Made by a program: the position numbers and the translations under genes. From IMG/VR virus record IMGVR_UViG_3300010148_000050, positions 1 to 34,269 of that record: a stretch of DNA of 34,269 nucleotides. One strand, given 5' to 3'. Of this stretch, positions 6,463 through 33,001 are shown piece by piece. Every line of letters begins with the position of its first letter. Position 1 is the first letter of the stretch. Source of the stretch: a virus. Its lineage: Duplodnaviria > Caudoviricetes. The notes beneath the pieces were generated by a model that did no database searches, had not been told where the DNA came from, and saw only the letters and a program-made list of their open reading frames with translations.

Positions 6463-6831
6463 TTAACCTTTTGTCCATAAACCATACTCTACTTTTATAT
6501 TAGTAGTGTTAGCTTTTAGTTTTAGTCCTTTACTTGCATCTATCGGGTACATCATAAATTCTCCCGGTCCTAAACTTCCAAATAGAACTGGAGATCCTGC
6601 TCCTGTAGCCACATCTAACATACTAGAAGTATGTAAGTTCTTTATATATGCATATGTAATGGTACTTATACTAGTAGCTACTAACTCTGTGTAAGCTAAT
6701 GTTGTAACTTCTACTCTAGCAGAATCCACAATAGGATTAGCTACAGTTAAATTATCTGTTAAACTAATACTTAAAGCATCAGTTGAAGTAGTAGTACTTG
6801 TTATTGTTAAGGCTGTTGATAAAGTTGCCAT
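6463..6831 (-). CDS. Small beta-rich putative virion protein, paralogue of 6862..7230
   Basis: 122 aa; shares MATLS..L..TSTTTSTDALSIS.TD.L.V..P and EYG.W with the neighbour. Confidence 0.7.
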   Translation of the reverse strand: MATLSTALTITSTTTSTDALSISLTDNLTVANPIVDSARVEVTTLAYTELVATSISTITYAYIKNLHTSSMLDVATGAGSPVLFGSLGPGEFMMYPIDASKGLKLKANTTNIKVEYGLWTKG

Positions 6832-6861: not shown

Positions 6862-7230
6862 TTAACTCTTAGCCCACTGACCATATTCTATAACACACGC
6901 ATTTCCAATAGCTTGAGCTGCCACTGCTTTACCATCTTTCAAAGGTAAAAAACAACATTCTCCAATTCCCATTTTCATAATTCCAGCTCCTCCAAGATCA
7001 ACTTCGACTACATCAGTAGCAGTAACACCACTTATTACTTTTATATATAAGTAAGTTATTTTTGATGCAACAGCTGCTAATACAGCGGTTGATCCTCCCG
7101 TTGCTATTGATTTACGAGCTACGTTTATAGATGGCTCAGTTACACTAAGACTGTCTGTTGTTGATATACTCAACGCATCAGTACTTGTTGTAGTACTTGT
7201 CAAAACTAATTGTTGTGATAAAGTCGCCAT
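6862..7230 (-). CDS. Small beta-rich putative virion protein, paralogue of 6463..6831
   Basis: 122 aa; same length and motifs as the neighbour; preceded by a promoter-like element. Confidence 0.7.
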   Translation of the reverse strand: MATLSQQLVLTSTTTSTDALSISTTDSLSVTEPSINVARKSIATGGSTAVLAAVASKITYLYIKVISGVTATDVVEVDLGGAGIMKMGIGECCFLPLKDGKAVAAQAIGNACVIEYGQWAKS

Positions 7231-7299: not shown

Positions 7300-10200
7300 T
7301 TATCCCTCATTATTACACAATAATCCTTGTAGTATTGCGTCTGCTAAATCATCTTGACTTATTGTAAGGAATTCTTGACCTGCTCCCGGTATTTTAAAAG
7401 TTACTCCATAATTAGCTAAACTAAATCCTTGAGAACTATATCTACCAGGAGGAATAGTTGAACCATCATGTAAAGCAGTAGTTACATTAGAATTACCTAA
7501 CCATGAGTAAGGATTAGGAAAATTCGTATCTGTATAAGGAGCCATACTTGCGCATGCGCTAGTCCAAGGTAAATCTATAAAGTCTGCACAACTGATATGA
7601 CCTAACTCTGAAGGATTTCCTTGTCCTACAACACCATATAAAGTTGAGCAAAACATTTGATTATTTAAACCTCCAGGCGTGCCTGACATTTTAGTAGGGA
7701 ATATAATAGCATTAAAATTACCATTTGCATAACCAGTACCTATTGGTCCATTAGCGTGTTTAATAGTCATAGAAGCTGCTCCATTCGTATCATACCCATA
7801 ATTCCAAGCCTCAGTAAATCTAGTATGATCAATACATAAAGGTGTAGTAATATAAGTATCATAAACATCTACAGCATCTCCTGTGCCATACCACGATGCA
7901 TTACCAGAACTTCCAGTAGAATTATTTAATATACCAGGACCACACTCGTTCTGCCAGGTCTGGAGAGTACTACTATTAAATTCCAAATTCTCTTGTGTAT
8001 GATACACAGGATTAGATTCATCTACAAACATAAGACAAATAGCATTAGTATCCCCACCTTCAAATGCATGATATACATCACTAAACCCTTCTTCGCCTGG
8101 TGGATCATTAAATGGATTAAGTTGTGTACCAGGTAAATTATTTACATAATTACCATTTTGATCTAAGCCATTAGAATTCATAGACTTAATAAGAAGACGT
8201 GCTGAGTCAGTTAGATCGGGAGTCTCCTCTCCTGTAGTTTTATAAACATCATTTACAGTAGAGAAAGGTATTCTTAAATTAGGATGTAAAGATGGAGAAT
8301 TACCATGTATTGGGTACATCATCCATTTTATCCATCTTTCACTACCTCCAGTAAGAAGTTGACCCATCTGATTGTCATAATTAGCTAAAACATCATTAGC
8401 TCCTGGAAAATCAATACTAAAAGTAGATGCGGTATAAACATTCTGCCACCAATAAGCACTCCTGTTACTATCCTGAGTTCCGCTAGTAGGAGTTTCATAA
8501 GCATCCCAATTTGCTGGATCAGTACTACTGTTTTTCCAATTTGTAACTGTTATTTTTCCAAACCACGAGTAACCTACAGGTAGATGATAAATATTACCAC
8601 TAAAATTAGTTATATTATTATCATCCAATATTTGTGCCATAGCAGCTTCTACTAAATTTCTAAGATCTGCACATGCTTGAAGTTTTACTTCTCCTGAGGT
8701 ACTTGGATATATAGACGTCATATCATAAAATACATATATATTTCTATTATCAAGACATGATTGTACATTGCTAGCACAACAAGCAGCATCTGGACACATT
8801 ATACATTCTGGACAATAATTCTCTGCTTCCGGATCTGTACACCCATAACAAGATGCATATTCACATAATGAGTTATCAGCAACAGTACAATCTGCACAAT
8901 AGTTACAGGCTGTTAAATCCAGACATCCAACACATGAGTCTGTAAAATCTTGACATCCACATTGTCCTGGATATATACATTCACCTGGTATATTTTCAAC
9001 TGCACTAGGATCGAAGTTACATGCATTAGGATCTGTACATGCAGATGTATAATAACAAGAACCATCATCCCATTCAGCTGCTGCATCATAATTTAATGCA
9101 TCTGGATTAGTACATCCTCCAGGAACTTCTATAGGAGGAATTATAGTTTCTACATTTGATAAATTACAATCATATTCTCGTAATGTTAATCCTTTAGGAG
9201 GAAAACAAGATCCACATAATTCTCCAGCATTTGTAAATACTTTATCTACAGTTGTCCAGTCTAAACAATTAACACAATCTTTTTCATAAGTTACTTCAAT
9301 ACCATCTGGTGGAATAACTACTCCAGGATAACTACAACATGAAGTGTCACTTCCACCTTCTACTCCACTACAATCACATGTATTGTTAGGATTATAATTT
9401 GTAGCAGTTGGATCTTGACAAGATAAAGGACATCCTTCATATATACAACAATCATTCAAAACACCTGTTTGTGATAAACATGTAACACATCCTGGACAAT
9501 AATTTAATGCGCTTGGATCAGTACAACCACCTATAGATGATCCCGCAGTACAAAATCCACAGTTAACAAATATATCTGATACTGTTACTGCTATTTCTGG
9601 ATTACATATATCTTGAGTTTCAATATTCCAACATCTAGGATTACCTTGACTGTCTGGATATTGATCTATTCTTACAACCGATCCTGAAGCAAATGCACTA
9701 TTTAAATCTGCATTTGGTAAAACATTAATTAATTGATCTCCACTACTATCACAACAAACTAATGTAAAACAATCTTGATTAGGATTTTCATATAAACAAC
9801 TATAACATCCTGGCCACGATTCTATTACAGTTAAAAGACCTGGGCCTATTAAAGGATTACAAGTTGTTTGATTACACTGTCCACAATATGCAACAGTAAA
9901 GCAATCATCATTTGTCAAACCTAATGCTAAAACATCAGCAGGTAATTGTTCAAACTTAAATACATAATCTCCTAAATCAGAAATACCTCCCCAATATTGA
10001 TCTCCAATCATCACAAAACTTATTGGATTTGTATCAGCACATTGTGTTACTGTATAACATTGTGTAACAGTTGCATTACAACATGTGTCACAATTATCTT
10101 GTATTTGTGATACAACTACTGGTACTGCAACAGTTTGATAATCTAAATAAGGATCGTATTCACAATCTACTTTATAACATCCTATATATCCTACTAATTC

Positions 10201-13200
10201 AAGTACATCTGAAATTGAAGGGTCATCATCAAGAGCTCCAGGAGTACAATGAACATTCATATTAGTAGATGTAATAATTTCACCAGGTGCTCCATTCCCA
10301 GCATTTTCTGGACACTCATCACATAAAACTAATCTCCATCTAGGATCTTGAAATTGTACATTACAAGCATCACAATCTATATAACCTGCAACAGGAGTTA
10401 TTGTAGTAAGAGATTCGCCTTCTGGTAATGTACCTGCAAGCTCCGCATACCAACAAGATAATCCAGTTCCTGGATCCCAAGTAAATGAAGTATTGTTACC
10501 TGCTTCTCCAACATACGGCCAAAATAATTCGTCATCAGAATAATAAAATTGAGATACACAAAGAGGACAATCAAAAGGTTCGCAGAAAGTATCTGGAGCA
10601 TCTCCTAATCCAAATCCATAAATCTGACAAACCATTGTTCTATCTTGAATTGCAGCTGCAGAACCACCACTCATATAACAAGCAGTTGGATCATAAGCAG
10701 TATCTTCTCCAGGAGCATAAATACTTGTAAAGCTAGTACTATCTGCAGTCGGGGCCATTATCGCATCAGGATCCCCAAAACTACCAGGGTTTGCATTACA
10801 CCCAGTATTATATATACCATTTTCAGAACATGTAAAACCTCCCTGAGCTACAAAAGAACCTGTTGTTCCAGAACCTGTTGTTCCTTGACAATTAGGTTGT
10901 AAAGCCATACTTTCATAAGCATGATGAAATCCAAATGAATGTAAGATTTCATGAATACCAACTCTTAATATTTCTATAGTACCAAATACTTGTGTATCAG
11001 TAGTCTTTCTCCAATTTTCGTTAACGTCAAATATTATATTTTGACTCCCGTTTGTTCTAAATGCTGTAGATGAATCTGTATTATATGTACCAGAAGTTCC
11101 ATCATAACCTGCAGTAACATTAAACATACTAGGTCCAGTAGCCCAAGCTAAAGCACCACTAGCCGATCCTGTATAATTACATCCGGTACATCCACTAGTT
11201 TGAAATCCTCCTGGATTACCACCATTGGTATAACACCAATCAGATCTTCTTCCCATCCATATTCTAAAATCTCCAACACCTGAAGCACCCGTTGTAGTTG
11301 TAAAACCTATTGGAGCACTTGTACTCCAATTATCTAAATCAGAAGTCGGCAAAGCCGAATCTGTACCTGTTTCTTTTCCAAGATCTGTAAATCGTAAAGT
11401 TAACTGATTAGGGTAACCATTCTGAGGACTAAAAGTACTTTCAAATAATTGTGAAACTTGAGCAAAAGCTTTACCTACTTCTGCTCTAAATTGAGCTTCT
11501 GTTATTGTATAAGTTTTATCATAGATAACACCATTACTACCATTACCTTGAGCATTATCTGTAGTAGGACCACTTTCATGTTTAGGTATAGTAAACTGAC
11601 CACTAGCAAAATCACCTGCTCCAGGTGACTCACCTATACAAGCTGAAGAATAATAACTACTAGGAGTTATACTACCTTCTCTTGGAAAACTGTAAGTCAT
11701 GTATACAGCTTGAGGTCCTGAGGCTAATTGCTGAACTGCATCCCATATATCTTGATTTAAATATTCAGTCATTCCAAATCTTTGGCTTTCTCCATCTAAT
11801 TGTATTGCTGTACCTGGCGTAAAGTCTTGACAATCATTTGCACTCGCACATCCTTCAGAGCTTTGGCCACAATTAACTATTTTAAATACATCAGGATTAT
11901 CTGGAAGATTAAAACATTCTCCAAAAAGATTTGAGGTAGCACAACTAAAATTATCATTTTGAATTGTAAGTGCAAGAGCATTATTATCATCTGAAAAACA
12001 TCTACGTTTTATAAACTGAGGAAATCCAAAATCTATTGTAGAGTCATTAGCAAGAACTTGCCTTCTAATTAAATGAGCTGCGTCTCCTGATGGTAATACA
12101 TACCCATCCATTTCAGCATCATTGATACTTGGAGTAATCAGATCACCATTTAATATATTACTAATATTAAATTTTCTTAAACATCTAGTAGAAGCAATTC
12201 TTTGTGAACTATTACCGTCTAATTGAGGATTCCACTCACTAGTATTAGCAGCTCCTTGAAAAGTAAAATCATACTCAGGAGTTAATTCTCCTATACCTAA
12301 AAATGTTTGTCTCCAATTTACTTGATTTGAAATACTACCTGAAGAATTACCTAATACAAGTCCTGCATATAAAGCTCCATCAGGACCTCTATGTAAATCT
12401 GTTACAATACTAGCTTGTAGTAGAGGTCTTATTACATTAGGTTTCTCAATGAATCCATCAGCACACCATTGTGGATTAAAATCTAAGTCACCTGGAATTT
12501 GATTTTGTAATCTTGTAGATGGATTACTTACTTTAAATAAAGTAGATCCAACCGATGGTAAATACTGATCTATGTCTTGAGTTTGTTGTCCTTCTGCTAA
12601 AGTATCTAAATTAACCCATGATAAAATAGGCTTACTTGTAGCTGGAAGTCCCATTCCTAGTGTATTAACACTAGTTTGACTTTCCCATATCCCACCATTA
12701 TTAACCCAGGTCATTCCTAGTTCTCCAAACAGATCACCCATATATTCATTACATTGATAAGCATGTGTAAAAGACATACCAGACTTATAAGTAAATAAAG
12801 CATTATCACCAAATTCAACTCCATGAGTAAATGGTAAAAAACCTTCATTCCCTTCACCTGGGGGTAAGTCTCCCCCACAAGTACTCATTCCTTCAGCAAC
12901 TATGTCTTGCCAAATAGCAACACACTCTCCAGTATTTTCATCAAAAGTATATAACTGAGTCCATCCTATTCCTAACTTATTACCTGTAATAGCTATATGA
13001 CTATTATTAGGAGAAACTTTAATACGCGCCCACTCACTTAAATTTTGTCTATCTCCATCTATTTTCCCTGGTAAATCATTTATACTACCACTCATGCTAG
13101 TAATTACAGGTTGCCCTATTCCAGTAGAATCTACTCTTCGTGCACGTATTTTACCCGGAGGTGAAGGTACCATAACAAGTCCTGTTGGAGGATCATATGG

Positions 13201-16200
13201 TATTACATCTAAAACCCAATAAAAATCTTCATCACTATCTGCTATTGCAGGTCTTGATGTTACTGTTAATCTTTCAGTCGAATACATAGTTGAACCAGGA
13301 AGATAAGGTAACTCTTGATTATAAGAAATTATTTCTCCTAATCCATCTGCTGTATCCATATTTATAACAGCATATTGAGGACGAAGATTTCCTGGTCTTT
13401 GATATATTAAATAATATTGTTTATATGTTGTACTACCTGGAAATCTATCACTATCAGGTTTTGGAACCGTTATACATTGTTGGGAAGCGTATTGCAAATT
13501 CCCACCAGGAGAAACACCTCCATTTAATAATTGACTTCCACCACTAGTACTACCCGTCATTGTTAGATGACTAGAATTGTATACAAATCTACCATCCGAA
13601 TAAAACATTATAGCACCTCTAGTATACTCTTTACCTCCTATAGTAACAGGTTCATGAGCACTATGTACTGTACTTCCAAATTTAGTAAAGAAATTATTAT
13701 CATTTAAATTTGCATCTATTGTACCCATATTAGTAGGCGATATAGCTGTACTTGGAGTGGCTATACCCATACTATTTTGCCATGTTAAAAGACTACTCTT
13801 TCCCCAAAGCCAATTAGCCCCATGAATATAATCTGCTGTGACACATCTTTTCCAGCAACCTGTTATAAGATCTGTTTCAACAAAATTAAATGCTCTATTA
13901 GCATCATCATCAACAGAACTAAATGTACTATTAAATACTGAAACTGGTTGATCAGCAAAACAACTTAACATCATAGTAGAGTTAGTAGAAGTTACAGTCT
14001 GGCAATTTGCTACATAAAAAGGATCACAAGACAAACACTTATCAGCATCACTACTAGTTCCATCAATTTGTACTTGTGATAGTTGGTTAGTTGCTATTGG
14101 GAAAGGTGACATTTCTATTTTAAAACACTGTGCTTCAAGTAGATTTCCATTAGGATCTGTAAGGTTTCCCCAAAAAACTAAATCTCCTGATAGAAGAGCA
14201 GCAAGCAGATTACTATCTGTAGTATAATATTCTTGTATACCAAAATCTTGACCTGGATTTAAATCACTACAACACCCATTTATTTTAACAAATGCTGGAG
14301 CAACTGCTTCATTATTTTGTGCATTACAAGTTATACAATCTGGTGCAGATAAAACTAATTGAGCTGTAGGTCTTAATGTTGGGGTAGGTCCATAAATAGT
14401 AGAATCTATTTCCCAACAATGTCCATTCTCTCCTTTACCAAGATCTTGAATTTTAACTGCTCCTGTTCCTATATGTCCATGTAGTGTTGTACTACTTGCA
14501 TAGTCAACATACCTTACAATATTCTGAGCTTTACATTGTTTTAATTTTAAATAAAAATTACATGTATTGCAAGACTTTTTAGTAGTCTTGATTGTCTGCG
14601 CTGATGCAGATACTAAATCAACTGCATTTCCTAGATCGTCTACACTACGACAAAATAGTTCTCCTTCTAATTGAACTGTCTTACCTCTCTTAACTTTAAT
14701 ATTTTTAGTTAAAGCTTCTGTAGTATATTTAGGATCTGATGTAGGATCACCACATTTTAATAATCTATAACACTTAGTTTGTACTCCTGTACAACTAACA
14801 CAATCAGTATATTGTGAGGTAACATTTACATCTACACCAGAACATGTAATTGAATTATCATATGTATATACTGTATAACATTTACCTGGACTATCTGTTA
14901 CAATCACTTGTCCTAAATAAGCAGACACATCTGTTCTTGTAATTGTACTAGCACCTGTAGCACAATCTACTAATTCATAGCAGCAATTTTTACTTGTTGT
15001 AGAAGCAAAGCATGTAGAACAACTTGAATAGTTTACTAATTTAAAAGCACCTGAATCCCAGTATAGACATGGGTTATTATAACCTAATCCACTAGGAGGG
15101 AATCTAAATTTTGTATCACCATCTGATTTTATAACAGGTAATGTAGAAATTAAAGCACCTGTATCTTTAACTATTTTGTAAAGAGTGGAAGCAAAATTAT
15201 TAGAATCCCAAACAAGTACAAAGCAAGAATCTTTAACAATCTCTATAGCTTTAACAGTCTGATTTGCATTCAAAGATAATGTAGATGTTAAATCAGCAAT
15301 AACTGTATGAGTTAAAGTAGAAGGATCTAATTTAAATAAATCATTATATACAGGTGTGGCTGTAGGTGAACTATCACCTATACAATAATATTCACCTGTA
15401 ATTTTATCTACTGCAAGATCTCCTGTTAATTGAACAGTAGTATTTGTTAAAGTATTTATAGTAGTTAATACTCCTTTTTTATTAATAGAATTTCTAGATA
15501 CTTGAGTTACACCACTAACAACACCTCCTGTAATAAGCTCATCTGAATAATTAAAACTAACAGTAGTAGATTGAGGTACAGTAATAGTTGTAGAACTTCC
15601 ACCAGGTACAACACCATTCGCGGGTATTGTGTAATACAAAGAAGATCCTCTAGGTATAAATCCTACACCATGTTTATTAAAAGCTATATCAGTACCACCT
15701 ATAATAGGTTGAGTATCTAATATTCCAGTAGTTAAGTCTACTTTATAACCATTAGAATCCCCTATTATATATAATGAATCATCAGAAGACTGTACTTCTA
15801 CACATCTATTTAACTGATCATTGTTTTGAGCATTATCTGTTATTTCATAATAACTACCTACTTTACATGTTGAATCATCACTAGTTCCAACTATTTCTCT
15901 TGTAAAACCTAATCCTTTATAACCTGAATCACAACAACTTACTAATAATTTACAATAATGATCTGATTCAATTTCAGAACATGACCCACAATCAGGTGAA
16001 ACAGATAGTATATCACCTACTGTAGCAGAACCAGATACTGCAAACCAAACAGTAAAACAACCCGCATAGTTAGCAACTGTAACAACATCACCCTCATGAG
16101 GACTTAATAATGCATTATTTGTATCAATATATGCTACGTTAACTATACCAGCACCTTGCGCAGTATAGTTCCAAGTACCTGTACTTGAGTTAATTGTAAT

Positions 16201-18120
16201 ACTTTTACCATCAGTAGCTGCACCTGTAGATGTATTAATAGTATATCTTTTACCTTCTATATAACCATATAATGTAGTATCATCAGTAGCTAAACCTTCA
16301 TAATCTTTACTTAAAGTGTTTGCTCCTACAGTAGCCCATGTACCTGGACCTGTATTTTTATATAGATCATCACCAGATGCCATATATAAAGTACTACCTA
16401 TATAAGCAGTATCTACTGCTACATGTGCTGTATTACCTGCAGTTTTAGTAGCCACTCCTGTAGCAATTACTATTTCTGCATAATTATAGTGAGGACCAGT
16501 TATTTCAACTACTCCATATAATTTAAGAGGATCCCCATTTTTACTAGATATAGATTTGAATCCTGTAATAGATGTACCACTTACAGTAGTACCTGCATCA
16601 ACATTTCCTGTAACAGGATCTATTTTATATATCTTTGGTGTAGCTCCTGTACCTGCTAATAAGTAAATAAAGTTAGTTTCTTTCTGTACTGCTATATTTA
16701 CTCTATTAGAAATAGAACTTACATCTGCAACTTTCGTAGCATCTAGTACTCCGTCTAGAACCCAAATAGATCCTAGTGTATCCATTATATACTCTTTCTG
16801 AGTATCACATGGAATTAATCTATGATAAGAAGTTGTTGCTGTTGTTCCTTCACCTGCCAGAGGTCTAGTAGGTGTACCTTTACCTATTGTATCTCCCGCA
16901 ACAGTTGTTGCAACAGTTTCAGTAAACTCTGAATTAGTAGGATCTGATGTATCCCTTATTACAGATAATGAATTAGTAGCATAAATATCATTATAGTCAG
17001 AACTATATCCACCTGAAGTTCCTACAACAGCTGGTTTTGTTAAATATATACGATCAGCATATGGATCTTTATACATACCAAATATGGCTTTATCAACATT
17101 ATTTCCTAAAGAACTCATAGATTTACCTACAGTCCCTTGAGCTGTAACAACATTACTAGCATTTAAAGTATACCAATTAACTCCTAAACCATTACTTGCA
17201 TCATATACTGGAACATATAATGTACTTGTATCAAAGTCCCATTCTAAATCATAACCTTTTAATCTACCATCATTTCCTTTTCCTGGAGATACAGGTCCTG
17301 CATCTTTAATTGGAACCGTAAAAGAATTAAAAGCAGAAAGTACACCTGTTGCAGGATTAAGATCATATACTTCTACTGTAGCAGTTGTAACAGGAGTTCC
17401 TGAAGTACCAACAGATGCTTGGTAAACAGTAGCCATTTTTGTATTATCTCCATTAAACTTAATGGTAGCATGATTAGCTGCATCATTATTTGCATAAACA
17501 TTACCTATAGCAGTTGTAACTAAAGAACCAAATACAGGAAGATGTGAAGATACACCTGTTATTAAAAAGACCTCATGTCTATTAGAACCTTTTAAATGTG
17601 TCATAAAACCATACTGACTTGTAACTGAACTATAGAAAGCATTAAACCTATCAGTAGTTGCGCCTGATACAGCTACAAAACCAGCAGCTGAACCACCACT
17701 AGTTATAGTTTGATTCTGAGCTACTGTTCCACGACCACTATTACCAGTCATGAGAACATTATGCACATAGATTTTTCCGTTTGCAGGATTATGTGTTAGT
17801 ATCCACCAATAATGAGTTTCACTACTTTTAAGAATTACAGCTGTTTGAGCTGATTTATTATCACCATTTAATCCATTTAAAGTACCACCATTCATGATAG
17901 CACCAGTAGAATCATATACAGTTTTACCATCTGTATAGAATAATAAATCACCTGCAGAATAAGATACACCAGGGTTATAAGCCGCATCAGTTGCTACTGA
18001 CGCAGTACCCGCAGGAGCACTAAATGCTGCTGGAGTACTGGATAAAACAGGAGGATAACTATCGTTATCTTGTTTTACACTATTACCTAATACTAATTTT
18101 TTCCACTTTTCTGCTGCCAT
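7300..18120 (-). CDS. Giant (3606 aa) Cys-rich multidomain protein, probable tail fibre/adhesin: beta-propellers, CxxC modules, metzincin Zn-protease, GCTD-type repeats, vWA-like C-terminus
   Basis: Uninterrupted ORF in the tail region; HEILHSFGFHH (HExxHxxGxxH) plus a DAIMAP Met-turn; recurring [YF]xLxxC...C[YFW]xV...CxxC units; six CxDxxAxN[YF]-type repeats; two copies of a [LM]FY[TS]DGxxVY propeller start. Confidence 0.8.
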   Translation of the reverse strand: MAAEKWKKLVLGNSVKQDNDSYPPVLSSTPAAFSAPAGTASVATDAAYNPGVSYSAGDLLFYTDGKTVYDSTGAIMNGGTLNGLNGDNKSAQTAVILKSSETHYWWILTHNPANGKIYVHNVLMTGNSGRGTVAQNQTITSGGSAAGFVAVSGATTDRFNAFYSSVTSQYGFMTHLKGSNRHEVFLITGVSSHLPVFGSLVTTAIGNVYANNDAANHATIKFNGDNTKMATVYQASVGTSGTPVTTATVEVYDLNPATGVLSAFNSFTVPIKDAGPVSPGKGNDGRLKGYDLEWDFDTSTLYVPVYDASNGLGVNWYTLNASNVVTAQGTVGKSMSSLGNNVDKAIFGMYKDPYADRIYLTKPAVVGTSGGYSSDYNDIYATNSLSVIRDTSDPTNSEFTETVATTVAGDTIGKGTPTRPLAGEGTTATTSYHRLIPCDTQKEYIMDTLGSIWVLDGVLDATKVADVSSISNRVNIAVQKETNFIYLLAGTGATPKIYKIDPVTGNVDAGTTVSGTSITGFKSISSKNGDPLKLYGVVEITGPHYNYAEIVIATGVATKTAGNTAHVAVDTAYIGSTLYMASGDDLYKNTGPGTWATVGANTLSKDYEGLATDDTTLYGYIEGKRYTINTSTGAATDGKSITINSSTGTWNYTAQGAGIVNVAYIDTNNALLSPHEGDVVTVANYAGCFTVWFAVSGSATVGDILSVSPDCGSCSEIESDHYCKLLVSCCDSGYKGLGFTREIVGTSDDSTCKVGSYYEITDNAQNNDQLNRCVEVQSSDDSLYIIGDSNGYKVDLTTGILDTQPIIGGTDIAFNKHGVGFIPRGSSLYYTIPANGVVPGGSSTTITVPQSTTVSFNYSDELITGGVVSGVTQVSRNSINKKGVLTTINTLTNTTVQLTGDLAVDKITGEYYCIGDSSPTATPVYNDLFKLDPSTLTHTVIADLTSTLSLNANQTVKAIEIVKDSCFVLVWDSNNFASTLYKIVKDTGALISTLPVIKSDGDTKFRFPPSGLGYNNPCLYWDSGAFKLVNYSSCSTCFASTTSKNCCYELVDCATGASTITRTDVSAYLGQVIVTDSPGKCYTVYTYDNSITCSGVDVNVTSQYTDCVSCTGVQTKCYRLLKCGDPTSDPKYTTEALTKNIKVKRGKTVQLEGELFCRSVDDLGNAVDLVSASAQTIKTTKKSCNTCNFYLKLKQCKAQNIVRYVDYASSTTLHGHIGTGAVKIQDLGKGENGHCWEIDSTIYGPTPTLRPTAQLVLSAPDCITCNAQNNEAVAPAFVKINGCCSDLNPGQDFGIQEYYTTDSNLLAALLSGDLVFWGNLTDPNGNLLEAQCFKIEMSPFPIATNQLSQVQIDGTSSDADKCLSCDPFYVANCQTVTSTNSTMMLSCFADQPVSVFNSTFSSVDDDANRAFNFVETDLITGCWKRCVTADYIHGANWLWGKSSLLTWQNSMGIATPSTAISPTNMGTIDANLNDNNFFTKFGSTVHSAHEPVTIGGKEYTRGAIMFYSDGRFVYNSSHLTMTGSTSGGSQLLNGGVSPGGNLQYASQQCITVPKPDSDRFPGSTTYKQYYLIYQRPGNLRPQYAVINMDTADGLGEIISYNQELPYLPGSTMYSTERLTVTSRPAIADSDEDFYWVLDVIPYDPPTGLVMVPSPPGKIRARRVDSTGIGQPVITSMSGSINDLPGKIDGDRQNLSEWARIKVSPNNSHIAITGNKLGIGWTQLYTFDENTGECVAIWQDIVAEGMSTCGGDLPPGEGNEGFLPFTHGVEFGDNALFTYKSGMSFTHAYQCNEYMGDLFGELGMTWVNNGGIWESQTSVNTLGMGLPATSKPILSWVNLDTLAEGQQTQDIDQYLPSVGSTLFKVSNPSTRLQNQIPGDLDFNPQWCADGFIEKPNVIRPLLQASIVTDLHRGPDGALYAGLVLGNSSGSISNQVNWRQTFLGIGELTPEYDFTFQGAANTSEWNPQLDGNSSQRIASTRCLRKFNISNILNGDLITPSINDAEMDGYVLPSGDAAHLIRRQVLANDSTIDFGFPQFIKRRCFSDDNNALALTIQNDNFSCATSNLFGECFNLPDNPDVFKIVNCGQSSEGCASANDCQDFTPGTAIQLDGESQRFGMTEYLNQDIWDAVQQLASGPQAVYMTYSFPREGSITPSSYYSSACIGESPGAGDFASGQFTIPKHESGPTTDNAQGNGSNGVIYDKTYTITEAQFRAEVGKAFAQVSQLFESTFSPQNGYPNQLTLRFTDLGKETGTDSALPTSDLDNWSTSAPIGFTTTTGASGVGDFRIWMGRRSDWCYTNGGNPGGFQTSGCTGCNYTGSASGALAWATGPSMFNVTAGYDGTSGTYNTDSSTAFRTNGSQNIIFDVNENWRKTTDTQVFGTIEILRVGIHEILHSFGFHHAYESMALQPNCQGTTGSGTTGSFVAQGGFTCSENGIYNTGCNANPGSFGDPDAIMAPTADSTSFTSIYAPGEDTAYDPTACYMSGGSAAAIQDRTMVCQIYGFGLGDAPDTFCEPFDCPLCVSQFYYSDDELFWPYVGEAGNNTSFTWDPGTGLSCWYAELAGTLPEGESLTTITPVAGYIDCDACNVQFQDPRWRLVLCDECPENAGNGAPGEIITSTNMNVHCTPGALDDDPSISDVLELVGYIGCYKVDCEYDPYLDYQTVAVPVVVSQIQDNCDTCCNATVTQCYTVTQCADTNPISFVMIGDQYWGGISDLGDYVFKFEQLPADVLALGLTNDDCFTVAYCGQCNQTTCNPLIGPGLLTVIESWPGCYSCLYENPNQDCFTLVCCDSSGDQLINVLPNADLNSAFASGSVVRIDQYPDSQGNPRCWNIETQDICNPEIAVTVSDIFVNCGFCTAGSSIGGCTDPSALNYCPGCVTCLSQTGVLNDCCIYEGCPLSCQDPTATNYNPNNTCDCSGVEGGSDTSCCSYPGVVIPPDGIEVTYEKDCVNCLDWTTVDKVFTNAGELCGSCFPPKGLTLREYDCNLSNVETIIPPIEVPGGCTNPDALNYDAAAEWDDGSCYYTSACTDPNACNFDPSAVENIPGECIYPGQCGCQDFTDSCVGCLDLTACNYCADCTVADNSLCEYASCYGCTDPEAENYCPECIMCPDAACCASNVQSCLDNRNIYVFYDMTSIYPSTSGEVKLQACADLRNLVEAAMAQILDDNNITNFSGNIYHLPVGYSWFGKITVTNWKNSSTDPANWDAYETPTSGTQDSNRSAYWWQNVYTASTFSIDFPGANDVLANYDNQMGQLLTGGSERWIKWMMYPIHGNSPSLHPNLRIPFSTVNDVYKTTGEETPDLTDSARLLIKSMNSNGLDQNGNYVNNLPGTQLNPFNDPPGEEGFSDVYHAFEGGDTNAICLMFVDESNPVYHTQENLEFNSSTLQTWQNECGPGILNNSTGSSGNASWYGTGDAVDVYDTYITTPLCIDHTRFTEAWNYGYDTNGAASMTIKHANGPIGTGYANGNFNAIIFPTKMSGTPGGLNNQMFCSTLYGVVGQGNPSELGHISCADFIDLPWTSACASMAPYTDTNFPNPYSWLGNSNVTTALHDGSTIPPGRYSSQGFSLANYGVTFKIPGAGQEFLTISQDDLADAILQGLLCNNEG
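8812..9531 (-). repeat. Six GCTDPxAxNY-like protein repeats in the giant protein
   Basis: GCTDPSALNY, SCQDPTATNY, GCTNPDALNY, ACTDPNACNF, GCLDLTACNY, GCTDPEAENY. Confidence 0.85.
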
Positions 18121-18123
18121 TTC

Positions 18124-18858
18124 TTATCCTATTAAATCATAACATGTTAATTCTATCCATACTTTTGCTGTAATACCATTTGGAGATTGTGTTGCTTCAT
18201 GAAAATATGATTGATTGTCTGAGCCAACAGCACAAATATAATATCTATCAGTACCTGATTGATCCACACCATTTCCACCTCCCATAAATTTTACTATATC
18301 TCCACTATTATATGTATACCCAGGAGCCCAAATTAATTGACCTCTTGCTTGCCATGCTACTTTAGTATTACCACAAACGCTCCAAGCATTTACAGCTATA
18401 GCATTTTCCCAACATGGTATCTTTAAAACATATTCTTCACAAGTTTGTCCTAAAACTTCTTGACAAGTATCACAATCTATTACTAGACCATTCTGTAAAC
18501 TAGGATTACTAGCATCCATCCACCTCATATATAAAAACTCATCAGTTCCTATTGCTGCATATCTAGGATATACTTTTACAACTTGATCAAAAGTAAATCC
18601 TGATGTAGGTATATCGGTATGATATACTAAAGATCCTGAAGCTACCCATTCATTTTCACAATCACATCCGTCACTTACTAAACATTCTAGCATTTCAATA
18701 TATGCTCCTAATAATTGAACATTACATTTTTCATTTTCACAAGGTTTACCATACTTTTGTTTATCTACTAGTTTAGCAGTTTTTTCTGCAAAACAACACT
18801 TAAGTTTGTTTAACCTATGTTTTATATCATATACCGTATATTTACCTAAAGTACTCAT
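18124..18858 (-). CDS. Cys-rich putative tail hub/fibre-adaptor protein with a CBM5/12-like C-terminal motif
   Basis: 244 aa; helical KCC-containing N-terminus; WAPGYTYNSGDIVKF...YYIC resembles the WxxxxxYxxGDxV chitin-binding-module motif. Confidence 0.5.
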   Translation of the reverse strand: MSTLGKYTVYDIKHRLNKLKCCFAEKTAKLVDKQKYGKPCENEKCNVQLLGAYIEMLECLVSDGCDCENEWVASGSLVYHTDIPTSGFTFDQVVKVYPRYAAIGTDEFLYMRWMDASNPSLQNGLVIDCDTCQEVLGQTCEEYVLKIPCWENAIAVNAWSVCGNTKVAWQARGQLIWAPGYTYNSGDIVKFMGGGNGVDQSGTDRYYICAVGSDNQSYFHEATQSPNGITAKVWIELTCYDLIG

Positions 18859-19847
18859 TAAGATATTTTCATTATAAAAGCAAGTGCATAATAAGGAGGA
18901 ATGTTATTAAAACAATCCCCAAAATCAGGAGAACCCAAATCTGGTTGTCCATCTCCTGTATCCCCATCCATATTTACATCATGAATATGAGCTCCACATC
19001 TAGGATCATTATCTCCAGTACATTCACTACCACTACTAGGATCTAATGTAATTCTAAATGTAGGATTACTTACACCACCACATTCACTACAATTCCAGTT
19101 ACTAGCTGCAGCAAAATCTTCAGAACCTCCACCAAATATATTTGCAGGAACGTTTGCTGTAAAATCAGCAGCCCAGTGATGATAATGAGCACCTCCTTGT
19201 GAAAGAGATATATCTACATTATCTAAACTATGGATATGTGCTGGAATATTATTTGGAGCTAAACATGTAAAAGGAAATCCTCCTACGTCACCTACATTTG
19301 GCCATAAAGGATTATTATTTGCATCTAGTGCAGGTGGAGCACCCGCAGCTTGATCAGGCATAACTATAAATCTACCTCTAAGATCTGGAGTACCATTAGT
19401 ACCATCACATATAGCCCAGTTAGGTAATCCATCTATATCACTAATTGATCCTGACCACATAACAATAATACCTGGAGGAAGACTACCAGAATTACCACCC
19501 CCTTCTTCAATTATATTTGTTATGTTTCCTGCTATATAAGTTTGACTACATGGACTTGGAGCTGGACCTGTTTCTATAACAATATCTCCTTCAACTGCAA
19601 ATCCACTGTCTACAGTTTCTCCTCCTTCTGCTAAGTATACATTTAAAATAGAACATCCGTTGACACCATCTTCACCGTTAGTTCCAGGTGCACCATCAGC
19701 ACCTGCAGGACCCATTGGACCTGTTGGACCTTGAGGTCCTGTATCACCTACGGGTATATCACACCCATTAGATTCTGCACATGATTGACAATCACATGCG
19801 CACAGATTTGGATCTGCACATCCATTTTCACAATTTTCACATGCCAT
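18858..19847 (-). CDS. Tail fibre protein: Cys-rich N-terminus, collagen-like segment, tail-collar domain, HxH tip
   Basis: Ten Gly-X-Y triplets; LPPGIIVMWSG...WAICDGTNGTPDLRGRF tail-collar signature; HIH, HYH and HIH motifs; C-terminal NNIPPYYALAFIMKI. Confidence 0.85.
   Translation of the reverse strand: MACENCENGCADPNLCACDCQSCAESNGCDIPVGDTGPQGPTGPMGPAGADGAPGTNGEDGVNGCSILNVYLAEGGETVDSGFAVEGDIVIETGPAPSPCSQTYIAGNITNIIEEGGGNSGSLPPGIIVMWSGSISDIDGLPNWAICDGTNGTPDLRGRFIVMPDQAAGAPPALDANNNPLWPNVGDVGGFPFTCLAPNNIPAHIHSLDNVDISLSQGGAHYHHWAADFTANVPANIFGGGSEDFAAASNWNCSECGGVSNPTFRITLDPSSGSECTGDNDPRCGAHIHDVNMDGDTGDGQPDLGSPDFGDCFNNIPPYYALAFIMKIS
19659..19748 (-). repeat. Collagen-like (Gly-X-Y)10
   Basis: GDTGPQGPTGPMGPAGADGAPGTNGEDGVN. 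Confidence 0.9.
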
Positions 19848-19858
19848 TAAAACTTATA

Positions 19859-20464
19859 TTATGAGCACGTATTACACGGGCCCTTGTAATTACACAATCT
19901 ACTAACTTGCTTAAATATCTTGTCGGCTTTTGTAATACTCCCACAAGATGAAGCATATAGCATAGCTTTATATAATGTATAAGCTTCTAATGCATTTTGT
20001 TTTTCTGAATCGCACGGACAATCTTCGCACATGTCTAATGCTGCTAACATTTTATGTACACAACATTTAATTGTACTATAACAAAATATAAACTTACGAG
20101 CTGTTAACCAAGTACCTGCACCTCCCTGTTCTGCTACTAAAACTCTATATTCTATTTCATATAAACCCTGCGTCATTGTTGTATTTGCAGTACCACCTAA
20201 CATACTCATATTAATCATAAAAGAATTATTACTCGCATTAGGTAAAGCACTACCTATTATAGGAAGATCTAAATTATAATTAGTACCTGATGGGTCTATT
20301 ACATTTATTTCTACATCCTGAACATCTGATAATGCAAAATTAGGATCACCCCATCCTGTTGTATTTGTAACTGGATCATATGCACCTGTTGTATCTGTAA
20401 ATACTATGTTTTGTGAATCGCAAGATTCGTTTGCCGAAAAACTAATTTTTGGTAAAGCTGCCAT
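19859..20464 (-). CDS. Putative tail hub protein (Ig-like N-terminal domain plus Cys-rich helical C-terminus)
   Basis: 201 aa; DTTGAYDPVTNTTGWG and GLYEIEY beta-sandwich motifs followed by KCC/CxxC helices; position after the capsid accessory genes, as for crAss hub proteins. Confidence 0.5.
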   Translation of the reverse strand: MAALPKISFSANESCDSQNIVFTDTTGAYDPVTNTTGWGDPNFALSDVQDVEINVIDPSGTNYNLDLPIIGSALPNASNNSFMINMSMLGGTANTTMTQGLYEIEYRVLVAEQGGAGTWLTARKFIFCYSTIKCCVHKMLAALDMCEDCPCDSEKQNALEAYTLYKAMLYASSCGSITKADKIFKQVSRLCNYKGPCNTCS

Positions 20465-32265: not shown

Positions 32266-32622
32266 TTAACGTTTCCCACCATCGTACTCGACAGCATGTC
32301 CCTCACTTACTAATGCTTCATTAACATTAATAGGTAAGTTTAAGTCATCTGGATATATAATTAAAGTACCTATTACTCTACCATATTTACCCAGTTCTTT
32401 ACTCTCTACAACAAGACTTCCTTTATCTAATAATTCTATTAATCTAGCTTTTGCAGCTAAACCTTTTTTCTTTTCTTCTAGATTTCTTGTTCTAGATTCT
32501 GGCGCATTTATACCAGCCAGTCTTACTCTTTTGTGAACACTAATATCAAATCCTAGATCTATATTAACATCGATAGTATCACCATCAACTACTCTATCTA
32601 ATTTTGCTTTGTATGTATACAT
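32266..32622 (-). CDS. Thermonuclease (staphylococcal nuclease-like) protein
   Basis: RVVDGDT, RVRLAGINAPE, GKYGR, NEALVSEGHA motifs; no signal peptide. Confidence 0.88.
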   Translation of the reverse strand: MYTYKAKLDRVVDGDTIDVNIDLGFDISVHKRVRLAGINAPESRTRNLEEKKKGLAAKARLIELLDKGSLVVESKELGKYGRVIGTLIIYPDDLNLPINVNEALVSEGHAVEYDGGKR

Positions 32623-32623
32623 A

Positions 32624-33001
32624 TTATTGAAATTTATTTAATAGTAATGTATCTATAGAATTTTGAACTGTCTTTTTATCAGCATCTAATTGAAACATAA
32701 TATTAGGTTTAAACCTTTCTTTTTCTGTTCCATTCTCAAAGATAATTACAGTGGGTATAGCCTCAACACTATAATCCATTTGTAAATCCATATCAGATGT
32801 TATATCTATTCTATAAACATTACATTCTTTTAACTTTATTAATTCTTTAAATTCATTTGAAGCATTCCATGCAGCCCAAAACTCAACTACTACTATATCT
32901 TTAGCTACCTTATTCTTAAAATTATTTTTGTTAATTACTTCTTGTGCGTAACCTATATTTGCTAAACACACTATTAGCAGTATTAATATTAATTTTTTCA
33001 T
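32624..33001 (-). CDS. Secreted thioredoxin-fold protein lacking CxxC
   Basis: Signal peptide MKKLILILLIVCLANIGYA; VVVEFWAAWN in place of VDFWAxWC; YSVEAIPTVIIFENG cis-Pro loop. Confidence 0.75.
   Translation of the reverse strand: MKKLILILLIVCLANIGYAQEVINKNNFKNKVAKDIVVVEFWAAWNASNEFKELIKLKECNVYRIDITSDMDLQMDYSVEAIPTVIIFENGTEKERFKPNIMFQLDADKKTVQNSIDTLLLNKFQ

Follow-up and report, generated by a model that had tools for sequence, protein, structure and literature searches.

A 34,269-nucleotide (nt) fragment of a phage genome (IMG/VR record IMGVR_UViG_3300010148_000050; hereafter, the window) encodes a giant protein whose open reading frame (ORF) carries 11 copies of a cysteine module of ~65–90 amino acids (aa). 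Seven copies are compact (M3–M6 and M9–M11) and four are split by inserted domains (M1, M2, M7 and M8). We conclude that this eleven-module chain, interrupted four times by whole domains, is likely a disulfide-stapled appendage outside the phage tail. In the proposed mechanism, cysteines would pair as A–C1, B–C2 and, optionally, A0–loop, with extra pairs clamping the necks of the inserts. After lysis these bonds would form and hold the halves of each split module together, such that the insert would bud off sideways and leave the chain unbroken. The chain would dock on the tail collar through a neighbouring protein that contains a domain we call H, and would present the host surface with binding propellers and a zinc protease. 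Their targets, bound by the propellers and cut by the protease, may be surface proteins or the matrix of a Bacteroidota host.

The cysteine module and its family

The original prediction, which was made from the DNA sequence without database searches, described a chain of 11–12 degenerate CxxC units. We found eleven modules, M1–M11, between positions 16830 and 9547 rather than twelve, and the CxxC motifs that it had quoted were all present at their places in ORF 7300..18120 of the minus strand. The modules follow the pattern [C]Yx[L]xxC(A) ... C(B)[WYF]xV ... C1xxC2. When the window was analysed by itself the evidence for a repeat was modest, being clear for two of the seven compact units: with leave-one-out profiles M5 and M6 beat all 2000 shuffles, whereas M3, M11, M10, M4 and M9 were matched by 6, 21, 22, 116 and 214 of the 2000 shuffles, respectively. 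Thus, we collected relatives. A profile of 44 modules matched 506 protein clusters at E<=0.001. The best 150 of these clusters were examined. Of the 155 proteins collected, 140 were non-orthologues that share no part other than the module with the giant. When the profile seeded on the 44 modules was retrained on these 140 proteins, six window units (M3, 42.5 bits; M11, 32.1; M4, 22.6; M5, 17.3; M1 C-half, 14.7; M10, 12.1) exceeded the best of 300 shuffled giants (9.4 bits), whereas the M8 C-half (9.1), M9 (8.5) and M6 (−3.1) did not.

Orthologues provided a further test. In an alignment of 21 giants including that of the window, some rows of which are near duplicates (P0008, L082 and three fragments were left out), the 44 core Cys positions were 98% conserved compared with 33% for non-Cys residues, and every module retained all four core Cys in 19–21 of the 21 sequences. 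The repeat search and the module hidden Markov model that had been suggested as checks therefore came out in favour of the repeat, which is confirmed by the retrained profile, by Cys conservation among orthologues and by the split alignments described below.

An AlphaFold2 model of one module had a predicted local distance difference test (pLDDT) score of 90.6 and consisted of five strands with a short helix in a turn and another helix at the end. Each module is thus predicted to be a small beta domain of five strands that closes with a short helix. We found no catalogued family or solved structure that matches it, which bears on the caveat that the module might be an already described domain. 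Searches of Pfam with 44 members gave nothing significant (best E 0.009 in one member), and PHROGs, NCBIfam and PDB sequences gave no match, although absence from such libraries does not exclude a family. The best Foldseek hit in the PDB had an E of 0.92, and matches in the ESM Atlas stayed under 0.9 and were to unnamed viral clusters. With VIA-align the best neighbours were small Tudor/SH3-like beta barrels, such as the ARID4B Tudor domain (Z 3.7, rmsd 3.0, 46 aligned residues); this likeness is below Z 4, is tied with unrelated folds, covers the first 47 residues only and is no evidence of homology. M3–M6 and P0013 had no match in 50,697 GenBank phage records. Literature searches, for which most subscription papers were out of reach, returned no description of the module, of the architecture or of a phage virion metzincin. 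By these searches, the module appears to represent an uncatalogued and widespread family.

Modules interrupted by whole domains

Four units had been proposed to be interrupted by inserts of 200–600 aa. We found these four, with inserts of 218, 237, 613 and 414 aa and boundaries close to the estimates. The split modules were examined by glocal alignment allowing one long insertion, with 12 shuffles each for M1 and M8. M1 aligned across its insert with 46.4 bits compared with a shuffle maximum of 10.1, and M8 with 46.0 bits compared with 13.1. Of the two control regions, one likewise exceeded its shuffles, though with a low score (7.6 versus 1.9), and M2 was mis-paired when the minimum insertion was set at 40 aa. 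The M2 score was 22.0 in the window and 12.9–37.2 across the 21 orthologues, with the true N-part recovered in all 21, and M7 scored 29.9–45.1 in 11 of the 21; for M2 and M7 the orthologue scores were compared with one shuffle each (14.0 or less). The terminal Cys pair of M7 has an 8-residue spacing in the window and a spacing of 2 or 5 in most other aligned orthologues. Across inserts of 218–613 aa, the four core Cys were kept in 21 of 21 orthologues for M1 and M8 and in 20 of 21 for M2 and M7.

Structure prediction was another of the suggested checks. The AlphaFold2 model of M2–M5, computed from 22 sequences, had a mean pLDDT of 86.1 and a predicted template modelling (pTM) score of 0.64, and both parts of M2 were modelled with confidence (pLDDT 72–91 past the first ten residues, which had 57), which is indirect evidence that they belong together. 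The halves of M8 were also folded as separate chains and scored 0.42, compared with 0.17 for the best control, with runs agreeing in at least 70% of contacts and a partner pLDDT of at least 45. Among solved pairs 116 of 157 attained this mark, as did 2 of 215 mismatched ones; at scores of 0.60 or under, however, these comprised just 18 of the solved pairs and both mismatches, and the M8 result thus lends weak support to co-folding. From these models and alignments we infer that the halves of split modules would co-fold.

The original prediction had called three of the inserts propeller-like and the fourth a protease. The AlphaFold2 model of insert 2 (pLDDT mostly 80–96) was a closed ring of four-stranded blades. 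Its closest matches were YjiK (Z 16.5, rmsd 3.1, 202 aligned residues), SCAN (Z 16.4) and glutaminyl cyclase (Z 15.3), all of which we take to be five-bladed propellers, and insert 2 is predicted to be a five-bladed beta-propeller. For the other two the description depends on sequence likeness or on inspection by eye. Insert 1 had no family match and a weak hhalign match to insert 2 (E 0.0026), and looks propeller-like by eye. Insert 3 is homologous to the N-terminal domain of the giant. Its four outside relatives carry PKD and type IX secretion-type tail domains (PF18911 together with PF18962 or PF13585); in one orthologue insert 3 had a weak match to DPPIV_N (E 0.003), and its look-alikes contain PD40. 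A propeller fold is likely for this insert. The protease, which had been placed at about 11830–10600, proved to be a putative metzincin at 10585–11826. When cut out, insert 4 passed the Pfam Peptidase_M10 cut-off. Its HExxHxxGxxH motif (aa 2390–2400, about 10921–10953) was kept in 21 of 21 orthologues and the Met of its Met-turn (aa 2455) was invariant in 9 of 9 aligned sequences. The best solved matches were myroilysin (E 0.0016), MMP-9 (E 0.0055) and karilysin (E 0.0061). Insert 4 thus resembles metzincins such as matrixin M10, myroilysin and karilysin in its intact motif and Met-turn, from which protease activity may be expected, but differs in that it sits inside a structural module of a phage protein.

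Comparison of homologues, as had been advised, revealed inserts that vary at the same loops. The module accepts insertions in three loops: after Cys A, before Cys B and after Cys B. Across the 21 giants M10 was compact in nine, enlarged in one (G6) and split after Cys A in 11, so that one module occurs in compact form in some giants and, with its two halves intact, in split form in others. The M10 insert was a single domain of ~150 aa in nine giants and about twice that size in G3 and P0022; the two copies in G3 are distant members of one fast-evolving family. M9 had a 418-aa insert after Cys B in G6 alone (1 of 21). The after-Cys-B pattern also occurred in 13 of the 140 non-orthologues, one of which (P0115) turned out to be two ordinary modules, and 26 of 58 distinct H-domain proteins matched the insert pattern by an uncurated regular expression. 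In P0026, P0045, P0047, P0069 and P0074 a module was nested within another module at the hairpin before Cys B, and P0028 was similar.

Insert 1 occurs as two alleles whose distribution cuts across the tree of the neighbouring N-terminal domain. The P4 and P5 sequences are sisters in the N-terminal domain (100/100), and their monophyly was rejected in insert 1 (approximately unbiased test, p-AU 1e-31); conversely, the insert-1 grouping was rejected in the N-terminal domain (p-AU 3e-5). This test used 10 rows, and the groups were named after the identity table had been seen. These trees indicate that insert 1 has recombined between lineages. Since the swapped tracts lie within or roughly match insert 1, the pattern fits homologous recombination. 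No conserved DNA repeat bracketing the inserts was found among the 20 direct and 25 inverted repeat families listed. The notion of a display scaffold with inserted domains thus held up, in that inserts occupy defined loops, come and go among orthologues and, in the case of insert 1, appear to have recombined.

Further observations concern these genes. The ~150-aa M10 insert domain is uncatalogued and occurs in one or two copies (L062:7707-8156, L063:7555-8427, L080:11462-11911 and L081:3557-3970). P0011 and G007 share 76% in this domain, compared with 28–56% in the other segments compared. The P0003 sequence is 92–100% identical to the window giant over aa 1–779 and then 32–50% identical from M6 to the start of M8; on this identity profile, P0003 is a mosaic gene.

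Cysteine pairing, docking and alternative readings

Whether the module is held by metal or by disulfides had been left undecided. Covariation of its cysteines was counted in the 473 modules from non-orthologues that retain the four core Cys. The loop Cys was present in 224 of 228 modules with Cys A0 compared with 58 of 245 without it. We also read by eye 30 modules that aligned without Cys B; 11 of these were nested, split, half modules or misaligned. Nine of the remaining 19 were of the CxxC type and kept C1 while lacking C2, one was ambiguous, and nine came from one subfamily whose number of tail Cys depends on B. There, the tail Cys numbered one, plus one if B was present and one more if the next element held a partner, in all 26 readable cases (counted by hand; two of 28 rows, nested or misaligned, were dropped and one B call was corrected). 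Among orthologues, B and C2 were lost jointly in G2 (M4) and P6/P0087 (M5), and A and C1 were lost jointly in P6/P0087 (M9). Because Cys are lost in pairs, disulfides are favoured over bound zinc, and the pattern favours three disulfides per module. Disulfide bonds are also described for the tail barrel and hubs of crAss001 in the available text of its structural report (PMC10172136).

The genomic setting provides the evidence for location. All large ORFs of the window are on the minus strand, and Pfam and PHROGs identified terminase, portal, crAss-type capsid (Crass_capsid, E 3e-144), rings 3/4, 2 and 1 (Ring_3_4, Ring_2 and Ring_1) and muzzle (crAss_MUZ) proteins. These matches, which include the crAss-type major capsid, several ring proteins and the muzzle expected of Crassvirales, show the window to be the structural gene block of a crAss-like phage. 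The giant ORF lies between the ring 3/4 and ring 2 genes, with the capsid, portal, three ring and muzzle genes on either side. It is preceded by genes for a 201-aa Cys-rich protein, a collagen-containing fibre and a 244-aa Cys-rich protein whose N-terminal part is H-domain-like. The giant and these three proteins contain 3.7–5.7% Cys, whereas the capsid, portal, terminase, ring and muzzle proteins that were counted, eight in all, have 0.4–2.0%.

The H domain, probably helical, was found in at least 53 of the 140 non-orthologues, mostly near the protein end. A motif scan yielded 71 viral loci, 67 of which contained an H domain. The H-domain gene directly followed a gene of the same family as the 201-aa protein of the window in 65 of the 67, and the domain was fused to modules in 62 and was a lone 88–89-aa protein in two. 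This position, after hub A and before ring 2, is that of tail hub B in crAss001, which the part of the report available describes as a 114-aa protein (gp39) of the fibre-docking collar (PMC10172136). The fusion of H to modules elsewhere, together with the separate H-like neighbour here, suggests that the giant docks through its neighbour. The description of the giant as a virion protein draws on gene position and domain fusions.

Several observations weigh against a tail appendage built in this way. The virion location is deduced from gene position and domain fusions; the names hub A and hub B were assigned by synteny only; the 201-aa family and the H domain had no significant match to crAss001 gp38 and gp39 (hhalign E 0.26 for the H domain and the single gp39 sequence); and in the window the H-like domain is on the separate 244-aa gene rather than on the giant. 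M7 of the window had a split score of 10.3 compared with a shuffle maximum of 15.1, which is not above chance on its own. The four window inserts were kept in kind in all orthologues examined, and exchange is therefore slower than the term 'plug-and-play' implies. The claim that the displayed domains are exchangeable stands in that inserts are gained and lost and one recombined, but most of the change amounts to slow gain, loss, duplication and allele swapping. As for the cysteines, M2 of G6 lost C1 and kept A, Cys totals per module were often odd (192 of 473), leaving room for bonds between modules or chains, and the covariation counts come from related sequences and not from independent events, so that they overstate independence.

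We weighed three other explanations. The giant might be virion-associated elsewhere, as a capsid decoration or an outer fibre cage, or might be a free multi-domain enzyme released at lysis that degrades host matrix; its lack of a fused H domain, the assignment of the hubs by synteny and the capsid auxiliary gene nearby are compatible with this. We consider it improbable, however, because module chains are fused to H after the hub-A position in the 62 loci above, which belong to another clade, because the H-like gene is 4 nt upstream of the giant, and because every neighbour from the hub-A position to ring 2 is fibre-like or Cys-rich. That the split modules are remnants, whose halves no longer co-fold and which serve as Cys-rich linkers in an ordinary string of domains, seems very unlikely. 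M7 is degenerate in the window and lost in G6, and the direct complex test of the M8 halves was weak, but the core Cys are retained across all four inserts, compact and split forms of one module coexist among orthologues with intact halves, and both parts of M2 were modelled with confidence.

The same scaffold could also be built from modules that each form a four-cysteine zinc (or iron) site resembling a zinc ribbon. The module does have the four conserved ligands of a zinc ribbon or finger, including a CxxC pair, with the core Cys almost invariant; CxxC spacing was found in 504 of 533 modules, and assembly takes place in a reducing cytoplasm, which would suit a metal site. In zinc ribbons and fingers, however, the ligands would be kept or lost as a set with fixed knuckle spacing, and a metal site that lost two ligands or changed its spacing in this way would not be expected to persist. 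In the module, specific Cys pairs vanish while the module persists, and the spacing of the last two Cys varies (1 in the other 29 of 533 modules; 2, 5 or 8 in M7 among orthologues; overall range 1 to 8). Moreover, Cys B was replaced by His in none of the 30 cases and by Asp in one, with no typical ligand pattern. We therefore think that a metal site has a small chance of being correct, and the choice between metal and disulfide is resolved toward the latter by the pairwise loss of Cys.

Beyond the proposed disulfide-stapled appendage itself, we raise a wider proposal that is possible but doubtful. In environmental crAss-like phages the tail-hub-B gene position might specify a modular display platform, in which a collar-docking helical domain carries or partners disulfide-module chains of undescribed fold with three loops that accept whole domains and even modules. 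In this lineage, up to twelve ~380-kDa appendages might bear propellers derived from type IX-secreted surface proteins of the host and a virion-borne metzincin that cuts the protein coat to reach the receptor, and the inserts might be re-equipped by recombination.

Known systems and neighbouring genes

By analogy, the design is like that of the split domains of RTX adhesins, with a different host module, cysteine chemistry, viral setting and protease cargo. As described for Aeromonas hydrophila AhLap, a ligand-binding domain interrupts the repeated domain of the stalk and projects off the axis, after which the interrupted fold is completed; nesting occurs too (PMC12077191). The giant likewise has a domain that is interrupted and then completed, as seen in its sequence, with co-folding predicted. 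The stalk of the adhesin, however, is immunoglobulin-like or a Ca-binding beta-roll, and the protein is a type I-secreted bacterial adhesin (PMC12077191, same text). The giant is a phage late gene with a ~65-aa cysteine module of five strands and a helix that had no structural match at Z >=4, three insertion loops, inserts of up to 613 aa and a protease. The top Foldseek matches of the M2–M5 model were LRP6 and megalin (E about 5e-7), for the propeller only. In those proteins, too, propellers alternate with small disulfide modules, but they lie between EGF modules, whereas those of the giant lie inside a module that has no EGF match.

The tail hub and fibre of crAss001 (gp38, tail hub A; gp39, tail hub B; gp22) belong to the same virus order and to a disulfide-stabilised tail (PMC10172136), and the gene neighbourhood of auxiliary capsid, hub A, hub B and ring 2 is alike. 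PDB entry 7qoj includes gp38. The fibre genes of crAss001 differ in adjoining the portal gene, its gp39 is only 114 aa long, and the module was found in none of 22 crAss001 proteins tested (best E 0.49). The outer fibres of crAss001 are described there as poorly resolved (PMC10172136).

Little is known about how environmental Crassvirales recognise their hosts, and the giant is a concrete, testable candidate in which a widespread module with three loops open to insertion is combined with a predicted pattern of disulfides and a connection with the tail collar. If the proposal is true, a phage-displayed metzincin would be an unusual route through a host protein surface. The tolerance of a domain of just 65 residues for inserts of 600 residues is also relevant to protein evolution and to display scaffolds.

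Features of the giant gene and the three genes that precede it
Feature	Coordinates	Strand	Basis
201-aa Cys-rich protein, tail-hub-A gene position	19859..20464	-	synteny only
329-aa collagen-containing tail-fibre-like protein	18858..19847	-	Pfam/PHROGs
244-aa Cys-rich gene directly upstream of giant, N-terminal part H-domain-like	18124..18858	-	hhalign 74.6%, E 2.6e-5, 48 columns
Giant ORF, 3606 aa, 135 Cys	7300..18120	-	
N-terminal domain, aa 1-428, no Cys, homologous to insert 3	16837..18120	-	hhalign 99.6%, E 3.7e-24
M1 N-half (first strand and Cys A)	16786..16830	-	
Insert 1, 218 aa, loop after Cys A of M1, propeller-like by eye	16132..16785	-	
M1 C-half	15976..16131	-	14.7 bits
M2 N-part, to Cys B strand	15784..15957	-	
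Insert 2, 237 aa, loop after Cys B of M2, predicted five-bladed beta-propeller	15073..15783	-	AlphaFold2
M2 C-part (loop Cys, last strand, CxxC)	15007..15072	-	
Compact modules M3 (14788-14985), M4 (14557-14775), M5 (14323-14556), M6 (14023-14295)	14023..14985	-	
M7 N-part, degenerate in window, canonical in 11/21 orthologues	13840..13980	-	
Insert 3, 613 aa, invariant Cys clamp on either side	12001..13839	-	
M7 C-part	11911..12000	-	
M8 N-half	11827..11892	-	
Insert 4, 414 aa, putative metzincin-type metalloprotease	10585..11826	-	Pfam Peptidase_M10 30.8 bits, cut-off 24
M8 C-half	10360..10584	-	
Compact modules M9 (10078-10344), M10 (9793-10062), M11 (9547-9774)	9547..10344	-	
Cys-rich region, GCTD-type repeats, 38 Cys	8755..9531	-	
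Conserved short two-CxxC segment, probably helical, inside GCTD region	9163-9291	-	
C-terminal domain, 484 aa, conserved, no family match, vWA-like motifs by eye	7303..8754	-	

Outside the modules, the N-terminus of the giant is basic and non-hydrophobic (maximum 19-residue hydropathy 1.5), and PHROGs gave no fibre match for the protein. The GCTD-type repeats occurred in 12 of the 21 orthologues; the other orthologue clade has a different Cys repeat at this position, ahead of the same C-terminal domain. The helical segment within the GCTD region had no significant profile match (best E 0.019–0.023), and its identity as a copy of the hub-A C-terminus was unsupported (E about 0.02). A vWA identity of the C-terminal domain was also unsupported (E 0.27 against one vWA sequence).

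The giant was present in 12 of 15 related records searched. The three records without it have capsid proteins that are about 70–73% identical and shorter genes in its slot; in two of these (G008 and G009) the slot proteins are 708 and 1013 aa and differ from the giant. Two orthologues from a source labelled tara suggest that the clade is marine. Two proteins in the hub-B position of other loci (L154:2592-8918 and L163:2-5575, minus strand; 2109 and over 1858 aa) contain GCTD repeats and an internal H domain and, by eye, have domains inserted into another small Cys element; profile comparison gave no sign of a link that had been seen by eye between the C-terminal domain of the giant and the 2109-aa protein. 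Module-chain proteins of a second class (P0012, P0015, P0016, P0023 and P0046) have no H domain, are acidic and differ at the N-terminus. Searches for the loci encoding P0016, P0023 and P0046, and for that of P0047, yielded no genomic context.

A gene for a thioredoxin-fold protein (32624-33001, minus strand) was considered as a disulfide catalyst and rejected because it lacks CxxC, has a signal-peptide-like N-terminus and was found in 4 of 13 related records. A staphylococcal-nuclease-like protein is encoded at 32266-32622 (minus strand), directly upstream of the terminase gene. Directly after the giant, two tandem 122-aa paralogues (6463-6831 and 6862-7230, minus strand) are 42% identical (E 3e-20) and are probably small beta-rich virion proteins.

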